Positions 24,920 to 62,009 of a stretch of 64,000 bases of DNA are shown in pieces. Positions within the stretch are counted from its first letter, which is position 1. Each line of letters opens with the position of its first letter. The DNA comes from a virus (lineage: Duplodnaviria > Heunggongvirae > Uroviricota > Caudoviricetes): IMG/VR virus record IMGVR_UViG_3300028914_000001, positions 285,489 to 349,488 of that record; one strand, given 5' to 3'. The notes beneath the pieces are model-generated. The model saw nothing but the letters and a program-made list of their open reading frames with translations, had not been told where the DNA came from and did not search any database. The position numbers and the translations under genes were made by a program.

Positions 24920-24927
24920 AGTTTATA
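24920..24927 (-). promoter_or_regulatory. putative late promoter TATAAACT
   Basis: AGTTTATA on the plus strand. Confidence 0.6.
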
Positions 24928-48267: not shown

Positions 48268-48777
48268 ATGATTACTATAGAATATTTCAAGAAGGTCTGC
48301 AAAGACACCCTCGGGGAAAATAACTGCCGTTTCGAATATGTCAAGGACCCGCCTGATGGGGACATCTATATTGTTTCCGTTCAGTGCTGGTACAAGGACG
48401 AAAACACGCAGTTTCTCCGTGAAGAACGCAAGGTTGCTTCCATCTTCGTATACGAGGACGGTTCGTCTCTTGTTTGTGTCAAGCCGTATGGCAAGCACGA
48501 TTCGTATGGAACCGAATGGCGTTTCAAGTTCAAGCGTCTCATGAAGAAGCATACACTCGTGTATCGCAAGTACGACAGGCTTATGGAAGAGATGGCGATG
48601 GACTTCAAGAACATCTTTGCCAACACGGAAGAAAGCATCTATTTCCTCTTCAAGACGATTTATGGAACCGAATGGGGGCCAGCTGCCTATCAGATGGCGT
48701 CGAACCTGCTCGAAACGATGCGCTTGCGTGACAGGAAAGCAACAATAGAAGGAGGCGACAATGCGCAATCTACCTAA
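48268..48777 (+). CDS. hypothetical protein (paralog of 11537..12076)
   Basis: Shared N-terminal motif. Confidence 0.6.
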   Translation: MITIEYFKKVCKDTLGENNCRFEYVKDPPDGDIYIVSVQCWYKDENTQFLREERKVASIFVYEDGSSLVCVKPYGKHDSYGTEWRFKFKRLMKKHTLVYRKYDRLMEEMAMDFKNIFANTEESIYFLFKTIYGTEWGPAAYQMASNLLETMRLRDRKATIEGGDNAQST

Positions 48778-49893: not shown

Positions 49894-50136
49894 AAATGGA
49901 GGCAATATGGCCGCAACTGTATTTTGGATAGTGTTGGGCATTGCTGGCGTTACTGGTATCGTCTGCGGCACCATGGTCACTATCAAAAAACTATCTTTCC
50001 GTTGCAAGCATCAATGGAAAACAGTCAAAGAAATCGACATTGTTGCTCAGGGCTCCGTAATCGGCTACCGCTATATCCAGCAGTGTGTACATTGCGGGGC
50101 AATCCAGCATGTCGATTGCGACTAACGGAGGTAAGA

Positions 50137-50439
50137 ATGAGTAACTACAAAACTACGCTCGAAATCGTCGGCCAGCCAAACCGCAACGGTCGCATATACT
50201 CTGACGAGCTTCTTGCAAAGTACAACGAGTCCTGCCCGAAGGAAATGCGTTACGGCGACAGGGTGGTTGGCCACCTGGACCATGTGTCCTATGATGGAGA
50301 ACGCTACATTGCCGCAATGACCCTCAACGAGAACATCGGAAATCCGCCAATAGGCATCCGAGGCGTTGCCGACATCTCCGAAGACGGAGAATGCCGTGCA
50401 TTGAGCATCGAGTCGATAGATTTTATCAAGGAGAGGTAA
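50137..50439 (+). CDS. truncated, degenerate T4 gp21 prohead-protease-like protein
   Basis: NRNGRIYS, GHLDH, IGIRG in place of VSSRG, C-terminal IDF; GGAGGT RBS; only 100 aa. Confidence 0.6.
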   Translation: MSNYKTTLEIVGQPNRNGRIYSDELLAKYNESCPKEMRYGDRVVGHLDHVSYDGERYIAAMTLNENIGNPPIGIRGVADISEDGECRALSIESIDFIKER

Positions 50440-60173: not shown

Positions 60174-60500
60174 ATGATTGAAAACAAGGAAGAATACAGG
60201 TGTAAACGGTCAGAACTTTCATCCAAGAAGGACGAGCTTAGTGAAAGTATCGATATGGTCGATGCCGTCAGGGAAATGCTGAAAACGTACAATGTTCGGC
60301 GGTTGTCCGCATTGAAGGCGAAGCTTGAACAGGACTATGATGCGGTCGCAGATGAGTACTACAAGTTCATCAAGGAAGAAAATGAAGTCTTTGACGAAAT
60401 CTGCAAGAAGTTCAGCGCCAACCAGATTGAATGCTGGTTTGTACAGGGGCGTGACGTTGTTGACCTTGTAAATTCATACCTGTCCGGCGAACTGAAATGA
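60174..60500 (+). CDS. hypothetical helical protein
   Basis: ORF in operon. Confidence 0.55.
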   Translation: MIENKEEYRCKRSELSSKKDELSESIDMVDAVREMLKTYNVRRLSALKAKLEQDYDAVADEYYKFIKEENEVFDEICKKFSANQIECWFVQGRDVVDLVNSYLSGELK

Positions 60501-60635
60501 GAGAAGCCATGTCGGAAGAACTGGAAGAGGAACGCTACCGTGAGCAGCGGATGCGTGAAGAAGCCGAGGCGGAGGAACAGTTCTGGCGTGAAGCCATGCT
60601 GAACTACGACTATGAGCGTGGTGACTGGAAATACT

Positions 60636-60668
60636 AAAAAGCTCTCCGATTTGGAGAGCCTTTCCTTT
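60636..60668. terminator. bidirectional terminator
   Basis: AAAAA-GCTCTCC-gattt-GGAGAGC-CTTTCCTTT between convergent genes. Confidence 0.7.
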
Positions 60669-61464
60669 ATTCATCGTAGTCGTCGAAGAACAGTCCGTAC
60701 TCCCTCATCCATGCACGGGCCCCGATTTGGTCGGCCCGTTTTTTCATTTCCTTCACGTTGAAGTTGTACACGTCCCACCAAGGGATTTCAACAAGGAGGA
60801 ACGGCGATTTTGCACCCATAGCTTCTACGCAGAGCTTGTAGAAGGCGTTGTCGGTCCCGTTGGTAGCGGACGATATGATTATCTTGTTGAATACCCCGCA
60901 GGTAATTGTCGGGAAGAATGCCTTGACTATGTGTTCCTGTTGTTCCTTGGTTGCGAACGCAAAGTCGTCTAGGAACATGTAGTTGACACGGGGTGTTATC
61001 AAGTAGGTTTTACTGGAATCTTCTACGTTATCGAGTGTACCGTATGACTTTGCTACGATAACGGAGTCTGTTGTAGTGTTTCTAATCTCGCCCTTATTGA
61101 ACTTGATTGACAACCCGTCATTGTACCATTCCGCAGGAAGGTTTTTTAGAGAGAAGGCGATTTTACCCACTATTTCGCATGCCCTTGCCAGCTTGGTTGA
61201 AACGACCGTTATCGTAACACCTTCCTCGAACAGCAGCTTGTGCATGATGAACAGCGTCGCTTCAAGCGTGGAGCCAGACTGTCTCGGCTGTTTCAGAATC
61301 AGGTTTCTCTTGTTGCCGCAGATTGGCGGAAGCTGCATAAGGGTCAGAACCTTCCGTTGGTAACCCCTCGTGGACATGCGTTCTGTCCCGTTGCAGTTCT
61401 GTACATAGGTGAATTTCGCAAGGTCGAAAATGTTGTCCTTGCAGTTAAGGAATGATTTACTCAT
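60667..61464 (-). CDS. terminase large subunit ATPase-domain paralog, nuclease-less, with degenerate Walker A/B
   Basis: RGYQ, PRQSGST (K to S), FLDDFAF (E to D), IISSATNG..NAFY, WWDV, REYGLFF then stop. Confidence 0.8.
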   Translation of the reverse strand: MSKSFLNCKDNIFDLAKFTYVQNCNGTERMSTRGYQRKVLTLMQLPPICGNKRNLILKQPRQSGSTLEATLFIMHKLLFEEGVTITVVSTKLARACEIVGKIAFSLKNLPAEWYNDGLSIKFNKGEIRNTTTDSVIVAKSYGTLDNVEDSSKTYLITPRVNYMFLDDFAFATKEQQEHIVKAFFPTITCGVFNKIIISSATNGTDNAFYKLCVEAMGAKSPFLLVEIPWWDVYNFNVKEMKKRADQIGARAWMREYGLFFDDYDE

Positions 61465-61543
61465 ATTGTACCCCGTATGTTAACCAGCAGACGGAATTGC
61501 CGACTGGCCGAAGCATAATTAAAGTATATTTTCACGATTTCCC

Positions 61544-61572
61544 TTGACAGGAACGGGTTTTTGAGCTATATT
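61544..61572 (+). promoter_or_regulatory. sigma70-type early promoter
   Basis: TTGACA-17 nt-TATATT. Confidence 0.85.
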
Positions 61573-61589
61573 GTCGAACGAGGTATATT

Positions 61590-62009
61590 ATGAGAATGCC
61601 TAGATTTTATTACATAATGAAGCACAAGTTGCATGCGTTCGTCGCCCGCAACTTCACTGGATGTGCATACTGCAACGAAAAGAAATTGTGGAAGATGTTC
61701 GGCGAAAAGTGCGTCCCGCTGGACAACTTCAATACTCTGATGGATAGCGTCCCGGTCGGAGACGGCAAGACAAAGTACGCCTGCTACTTCTACCCCAAGC
61801 AGCGCTGCATCGATGTCAACCGAGTGGACGAGAACGGGAAGTACATCACTGTCGAATCAATCTTCGTACACAACTGCCCCGAATGCGGAAGGCCATTGCC
61901 GTATATGCTCGGTAACAAGAAAAAGAAGGAAAAGGTGGTCATCGCTTCGACGCCCAAGGGCCCTAACGTGTTCTACAACATGTGGAAAAAGGCGGTTGGA
62001 ACAAGATGA
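61590..62009 (+). CDS. Zn-ribbon protein ending in a terminase coupling-motif-like peptide
   Basis: CAYC, CPECGR, C-terminal KVVIASTPKGPNVFYNMWKKA. Confidence 0.65.
   Translation: MRMPRFYYIMKHKLHAFVARNFTGCAYCNEKKLWKMFGEKCVPLDNFNTLMDSVPVGDGKTKYACYFYPKQRCIDVNRVDENGKYITVESIFVHNCPECGRPLPYMLGNKKKKEKVVIASTPKGPNVFYNMWKKAVGTR

Follow-up and report, generated by a model that had tools for sequence, protein, structure and literature searches.

The ATPase domain of the large terminase subunit (TerL) is among the best-established phage patterns read by bacterial sensors, Avs1-3 and Upx being the cases in point. By itself, the TerL ATPase domain activates EcAvs2 and Upx (Evans et al. 2026, PMC13601566). 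A bridging ATP seals the EcAvs2 interface and contacts the terminase-bound ATP and Mg (PMC13601566). In the complex of Avs2-trypsin with terminase, ATP1 is held by G165, K166, and T167 together with R162, and ATP2 hydrogen-bonds with E256 (bioRxiv 10.64898/2026.08.25.746987). Small phage proteins that resemble this domain have also been described. T4 Vs.8 is a stand-alone TerL-ATPase-like protein from the early region of T4 that is toxic with EcAvs2; its function was left open by the authors, who mentioned anti-defense as one possibility (PMC13601566). Ksap1 and Ksap2, two small proteins of phages, contain a sheet like that of the TerL ATPase and trigger KpAvs2 (PMC11564622, PMC13601566). It is only very recently that stand-alone TerL-like proteins of the kind of Vs.8 came to attention, none of them with an assigned function. 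Literature searches found no described terminase decoy or dead TerL paralog.

Here we analyzed a 64,000-nucleotide stretch (the window) of a phage record of 422,150 bp with direct terminal repeats. We are confident that one of its genes (Table 1) is a selected, noncatalytic copy of the ATPase domain of a T4-type TerL, carried as a moron-like cassette in a clade of phages of about 420 kb that have a separate, intact TerL. Like T4 Vs.8, which is among the small early or nonessential genes of its phage, the paralog is a nuclease-less TerL-ATPase-like protein that exists in addition to the real terminase. Vs.8 (219 amino acids) keeps intact motifs, GGRQSGKS and IIDE, whereas the paralog has neither. 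Vs.8 was rejected as an ortholog of the window family because the profiles show no significant similarity (hhalign probability of 2%, over 50 columns around Walker A only), and we treat it as an analog instead. Ksap1 and Ksap2 are likewise lineage-restricted accessory proteins resembling the TerL ATPase core; their likeness is structural according to the papers and not one of sequence homology, whereas the paralog is a sequence homolog. What is new here is the autonomous cassette, the recombination mosaic within it, and the existence of other short, lysine-less proteins of the TerL N-terminal type (TerL-N) in huge phages, some of them fused to a ribbon-helix-helix (RHH) domain and encoded upstream of TerL.

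Table 1. Features of the paralog locus, in window coordinates.
Feature	Coordinates	Strand	Basis
TerL ATPase-domain paralog, 265 aa, without the lysine and without a nuclease	60667..61464	-	ORF, PHROG, gp17 profile and fold, 37-protein family
Degenerate Walker A, PRQSGST, with Ser65 in place of K166 of T4 gp17	61267..61287	-	Translation, gp17 profile alignment
Walker B region, MFLDDFAF, with Asp167 where T4 gp17 has the catalytic Glu (E256)	60955..60978	-	Translation, gp17 profile alignment
Hypervariable, recombinationally swapped core, residues ~81 to 200	60865..61224	-	Nucleotide identity, regional dS
50-nt 5' leader, hairpin plus outer stem	61465..61514	-	Conserved even at 49% protein identity; RNAalifold
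Sigma70-like promoter of the paralog, CTGTCA-16-TATACT	61523..61550	-	Consensus scan; hexamers kept across relatives; function inferred
8-bp GC-rich hairpin, intrinsic-terminator-like, between convergent genes, usable on both strands	60641..60659	.	Scan
139-aa Zn-ribbon ORF (CxxC...CPECG), divergent	61590..62009	+	Near-consensus promoter TTGACA-17-TATATT

The identity of the protein, which starts with ATG, rests on several independent comparisons. Three PHROG families annotated as terminase large subunit match it, the best being phrog_5989 (E value of 3.3e-12), and a Pfam search with the protein gave no match. A profile of the whole family found T4 gp17 in the PDB with an E value of 2.8e-16. 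The AlphaFold2 model (mean pLDDT of 74, pTM of 0.75) had the gp17 ATPase domain, 2o0j, as its top Foldseek match in the PDB (E value of 7e-14, TM score of 0.67). On a TerL profile built from 42 full-length TerLs, the paralog spans positions 27 to 268, which is the whole ATPase domain with both of its subdomains, and it ends at the EYxxxF hinge between the ATPase and the nuclease, the latter being absent. The motifs follow one another as RGYQ (residues 33 to 36), PRQSGST (60 to 66), MFLDDFAF (163 to 170), IISSATNG (196 to 203), WW (229 and 230), and EYGLFF (255 to 260). A preliminary description of this DNA had read the gp17 landmarks as being in order, with RQSGST for Walker A, LDDFAF for Walker B, and a frame ending where the nuclease would start. 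All of this was borne out: every motif was located, gp17 was the top match by profile as well as by fold, the profile alignment places the Ser opposite K166 and the second Asp opposite residue 256, and the frame stops at the hinge of the TerL profile.

The N-terminal ATPase domain of T4 gp17 (PDB 2O0H, 2O0J, and 3CPE) shares with the paralog its fold and its motif order, comprising the Q-motif, the Walker A loop with its cis Arg, Walker B, motif III, and subdomain II. Among the characters of a T4-type large terminase, the paralog thus has an ASCE ATPase domain homologous to the gp17 N-domain, and it lacks the lysine of the Walker A G-K-[ST], the catalytic Glu of Walker B, and the RNase-H-like nuclease domain. 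It further differs from gp17 in an N terminus that is some 20 to 30 residues shorter, in being encoded away from the packaging gene, and in the presence of a separate intact TerL in the same phage. The TerLs of T4-like cyanophages are about 28% identical to it. The paralog has a basic N-terminal arm (pI of 9.8) and, at its other end, an acidic, aromatic tail (FFDDYDE). K166 and E256, which hold the ATPs read by the Avs2-trypsin sensor, are exactly the two positions altered in the paralog. Judging from mutagenesis of other terminases, the protein would not be expected to hydrolyze ATP, as the term "catalytically dead" in the preliminary description implied; in lambda TerL, E179D is lethal despite residual weak ATPase activity (PMC6379665).

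The paralog belongs to a well-delimited family. A collection of 5.8 billion proteins contained 37 homologs that are 49 to 92% identical to it, 34 of them full length (255 to 277 amino acids). When 1.84 billion cluster representatives were searched exhaustively with the profile, the family came back as a single cluster, after which the matches begin at an E value of 6.5e-30 with ordinary TerLs of 450 to 700 amino acids. Cultured phages gave no megablast match to the locus. The Walker A lysine is absent from 35 of 35 full-length members (the 34 homologs and the window copy), the residue being Ser in all but one and Ala in that one. With the lysine missing from every member, its loss is ancestral to the family. 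The Walker B pair is more varied, reading DD in 26 members, DE in 4, DN in 3, and EE and ND in 1 each. The position of the catalytic Glu is therefore relaxed among D, N, and E rather than fixed in a dead state, and the earlier claim that both catalytic residues are lost holds throughout for the lysine and only in part for the Glu, which 5 of the 35 retain. Invariant across the family are Y35 and Q36 of the adenine motif, R61, Q62, G64, T66, F168-A169-F170, S198, S199, N202, and G203, with D166 nearly so. Pairwise dN/dS values (NG86) are 0.16 to 0.33 for the paralog and, with the genomes paired in the same way, 0.04 to 0.07 for the real TerL, a constraint about 5 times weaker on the paralog. 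Its frames are intact and dN/dS stays below 0.35 down to 49% identity; over the first 80 codons, it is approximately 0.06 to 0.17 for most pairs and up to 0.29 in the comparison with L011. The proposal of selection for a pseudo-enzyme is supported by these data, namely the universal loss of the lysine, the purifying selection, and a constant co-occurrence with an intact TerL.

That intact TerL is a complete protein of 554 amino acids at G000:C1:277683-279347, with the motifs RQVGKS, LDEFAF, and TSTPNG, a C-terminal domain, and a match to Pfam Terminase_6N. The paralog is 27% identical to it over residues 56 to 219. The two genes occur together in 4 of the 4 sufficiently large genome records, G000 being that of the window phage and G001 (419 kb, with terminal repeats), G002, and G003 being related IMG/VR records. 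They lie about 67 kb apart, on opposite strands, in G000 and about 60 kb apart in the other three. The TerL of the window phage is only 33 to 35% identical to the TerLs of T4-like cyanophages, which places the phage in a deep, uncultured lineage. Among the neighbors of TerL are an amidase, a 575-amino-acid protein, and an SbcD-like gene, and no small terminase (TerS) was recognized among them. The 575-amino-acid protein, which has no recognized family, is encoded at L027:9932-11659 (G000:C1:275931-277658), ending 25 bp before TerL, and is a candidate small terminase or other packaging factor. The paralog itself is a lone minus-strand gene, as the preliminary description had stated, all other ORFs between 57.8 and 64 kb being on the plus strand; the further remark that the gene is far from the virion genes needs the caveat that the real TerL, too, is outside a tidy head module. 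PHROG and Pfam were uninformative for the nine ORFs neighboring the paralog, and the ORFs at 48761 and 59397, suggested to be capsid-like and to form a set of decoys with it, had no PHROG match. The 171-amino-acid ORF at 49924 to 50439 on the plus strand has a marginal PHROG match to a head maturation protease (E value of 0.0049 over 38 amino acids).

The gene has its own sigma70-like promoter, leader, and terminator-like hairpin and thus looks like a self-contained, translationally regulated moron. The promoter matches the consensus at 9 of 12 positions, stands back to back with that of the divergent neighbor, and, by this consensus match, suggests that the paralog may be expressed early. The leader occurs once in the genome. 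In the RNAalifold consensus, its outer stem pairs GCUUCG with a Shine-Dalgarno-like CGGGGU, with 15 pairs in all, 2 of them compensatory. The leader is thus predicted to sequester the ribosome-binding site and may act as a translational operator; an Rfam search of positions 60400 to 61800, which include the leader, gave no match. Every relative shows striking conservation of a 125-bp region 5' of the gene. This holds for L005 too, in which the paralog is only 49% identical and the surroundings are different, comprising DNA polB, DHFR, ThyA, and NrdD. The paralog is also the sole opposite-strand gene in L004 and L005. The terminator that the preliminary description had placed after the frame was found, its hairpin beginning 7 nucleotides past the stop codon, with TTTTT following the stem on the minus strand.

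The body of the divergent Zn-ribbon ORF stands beside the paralog at all of the closer loci examined, L005 being the exception. Its last 26 residues (61920-61997) correspond to a motif-III segment of TerL, at profile positions 199 to 224, with a score of 27.5 bits against a top score of 6.2 bits among 500 shuffles, and constitute the only other TerL-like piece within the window. Of 10 relatives with the Zn-ribbon body, 3 have this tail (the window, L008, and L004). Being limited to these, the tail is a variable appendage or a recombination relic and not a fixed partner.

Within the paralog, the central region evolves very differently from the arms. The window copy and that of L008 are 93 to 100% identical in nucleotide sequence over codons 1 to 80, only 47 to 76% over codons 81 to 200, and again 85 to 100% thereafter, and other pairs of relatives have different arms in common. 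Regional dS within the gene rises from 0.12 to 1.3. There are at least 3 types of core. These patterns indicate that recombination swaps the core among phages that have nearly the same TerL: in G001 to G003, the paralogs are 63 to 77% identical to that of the window over aligned positions (62 to 74% by tblastn), and the TerLs are 89 to 90% identical. That the core is swapped while TerL is nearly constant argues that the variable face of the paralog does not track or coevolve with TerL.

We tentatively favor a role in conflict, in which the TerL look-alike either blocks a sensor or serves a function that has to avoid ATP-dependent recognition. The protein probably acts by binding a partner. It would be a binding look-alike of the TerL ATPase domain, employed against the host or other phages, and not a motor. 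It retains the YQ that binds adenine, the loop R-Q-x-G-x-T, the Asp of Walker B, and the strand of motif III, with the lysine gone and the Glu position varying. In this view, the conserved arms at the two termini would maintain the fold or bind a partner that stays constant, and the recombining core would present the surface that meets a changing counterpart. The candidate outcomes are that the paralog blocks a terminase sensor, that it performs some other task without setting such a sensor off, or that it disrupts the packaging of a rival. Several observations weigh against a conflict role. Known ATPase-only TerL-like proteins trigger sensors and do not inhibit them, as seen with TerL fragments and Vs.8 for EcAvs2 and with fragments for Upx (PMC13601566); the residues kept in the nucleotide pocket could mean that nucleotide is still bound; the promoter timing depends on the 9-of-12 consensus match; and for at least the related lysine-less forms encoded upstream of TerL, some of them with an RHH domain, a packaging role is indicated. 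At stake is whether the PAMP has been made into a shield by the phages themselves or whether the packaging machines of huge phages have unrecognized parts in the form of pseudo-ATPases, a question posed by a family that keeps the fold, loses exactly the two residues holding the ATPs that the sensor reads, and combines this with a recombining core and a regulatory leader of its own.

A role in packaging, as an accessory or regulatory subunit of the terminase, is somewhat unlikely for the window family and is the strongest of the alternatives. Such a subunit would dock on TerL, the portal, or a TerS-like factor and either aid DNA recognition and motor assembly or restrain TerL until packaging. 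It is brought into consideration by other proteins of the same general kind. Among the best 150 profile matches, ten further short proteins of 251 to 385 amino acids lack the Walker A lysine, and several have DN at Walker B. P0098, P0101, P0091, P0177, P0107, P0096, and P0111 are nuclease-less proteins of 251 to 349 amino acids in which the lysine is replaced by I, V, G, M, or T and Walker B is often DN. The genes for P0111 (L022), P0096 (L023), P0098 (L024), and P0101 (L028) lie directly upstream of the real TerL in the same orientation, a count that excludes P0107, for which the following gene is cut by the contig end. Four of the proteins, P0098, P0101, P0091, and P0177, have an N-terminal Pfam RHH_1 domain, and this RHH-plus-TerL-N family occurs on contigs of up to 457 kb. 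In position and architecture, these RHH-fused forms look like a substitute for the small terminase, and the RHH-fused dead TerL-N at the TerS position may be the missing small terminase of some huge phages. The literature searched contained no description of RHH-fused or bare lysine-less TerL-N proteins upstream of TerL. That no TerS was recognized beside the TerL of the window phage also favors an accessory role for the paralog. The RHH and bare forms are, like the window family, short and nuclease-less with the lysine replaced. The window family differs from them in having no RHH domain (the alignment shows no N-terminal extension) and in not being adjacent to TerL, its gene standing far away on the other strand under a sigma70-like promoter. 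Further points against the accessory role are the exchange of the core between phages with TerLs that are about 90% identical and the weaker constraint on the paralog than on TerL.

Phylogenetic analysis bears on the same question. In free maximum-likelihood trees, the window family has a very long stem (1.18) and falls with six of the TerL-N forms (UFboot of 97, SH-aLRT of 76), which would speak for the accessory role. The likelihood is higher, however, for a tree constrained to unite the family with the TerL of its own phage (+22 lnL, AU p of 0.675). That a constrained tree beat the quick maximum-likelihood tree in likelihood makes the quick tree unreliable, and with the careful free tree set against a constrained tree of higher likelihood, the placement beside the TerL-adjacent forms is insecure. 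A duplication of the phage's own TerL and an ancestry shared with the TerL-adjacent dead forms are both candidate origins of the family.

Some of the loci with TerL-N genes have features of their own. At L024:8001-12354, the RHH_1 TerL-N gene is followed by an interrupted TerL, consisting of a 116-amino-acid N-terminal piece, an ORF of 413 amino acids, and a 603-amino-acid remainder. At L028:6001-10467, the RHH_1 TerL-N gene is upstream of a TerL of 1137 amino acids that contains a LAGLIDADG intein. Two candidates in cultured jumbo phages were rejected: ORF256 of XacN1, just upstream of the XacN1 TerL, is not homologous to TerL-N, and in the two records examined, PA5oct and XacN1, the matches of P0111 fall on the full-length TerL (there is a second match in Xoo-sp13).

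Returning to the role in conflict, its most specific form, in which the paralog is an early-made inhibitor of terminase-sensing immunity of the Avs1-3 or Upx type, we consider improbable as it stands. The paralog would fill the TerL pocket of the sensor, and without equivalents of K166 and E256, the ATP-sealed interface for oligomerization would not be completed; the recombining core would then reflect an arms race with the sensors. If this were true, the dead TerL-N paralogs found in several lineages of huge phages would represent a new class of anti-Avs proteins, widespread and derived from the PAMP itself.

It is equally doubtful that the paralog is a switch that binds nucleotide and does not hydrolyze it, serving some other DNA transaction such as replication, recombination, or transcription and concerned with neither packaging nor immunity. 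The invariance of pocket residues (Y35/Q36, R61, Q62, G64, T66, and S198/S199, with D166 close behind) is compatible with such a switch, as are the location of the distant relative in L005 among replication and nucleotide-metabolism genes and the basic arm and acidic, aromatic tail. On the other hand, loss of the P-loop lysine normally abolishes tight nucleotide binding in ASCE ATPases, and there are no conserved neighbors that point to a pathway. Finally, it is extremely improbable that the paralog is one part of a functional terminase split in two or a duplicate that has decayed recently, both named in the preliminary description as ways in which its reading could fail, for although the ORF ends exactly at a domain boundary and a TerL motif-III fragment lies next door, the genome has a complete TerL (RQVGKS, LDEFAF, and STPNG) whose nuclease domain is the only one found in the 422 kb, so that the paralog is not one half of a split enzyme, and relatives do not keep the lysine (the Glu persisting only in the 5 members noted), with intact frames under purifying selection.

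Two further observations concern the sequence around and within the gene. The motif TATAAACT is found 26 and 39 times on the two strands of the G000 genome, against about 6 expected per strand, an enrichment that fits a phage-specific, perhaps late, promoter motif. Neither the paralog nor TerL has the motif upstream, and it therefore gives no information on their timing. Its sites in the window are at 352, 2722, 21252, 25633, and 51950 on the plus strand and at 24920 and 28513 on the minus strand. Codons 241 to 260 of the paralog (60685-60744) are 96 to 100% identical in nucleotide sequence among the closer relatives compared and 71% identical in L005. For the closer relatives, this near-identity despite an overall dS of approximately 0.5 to 1 may reflect constraint at the nucleotide level or recent gene conversion.
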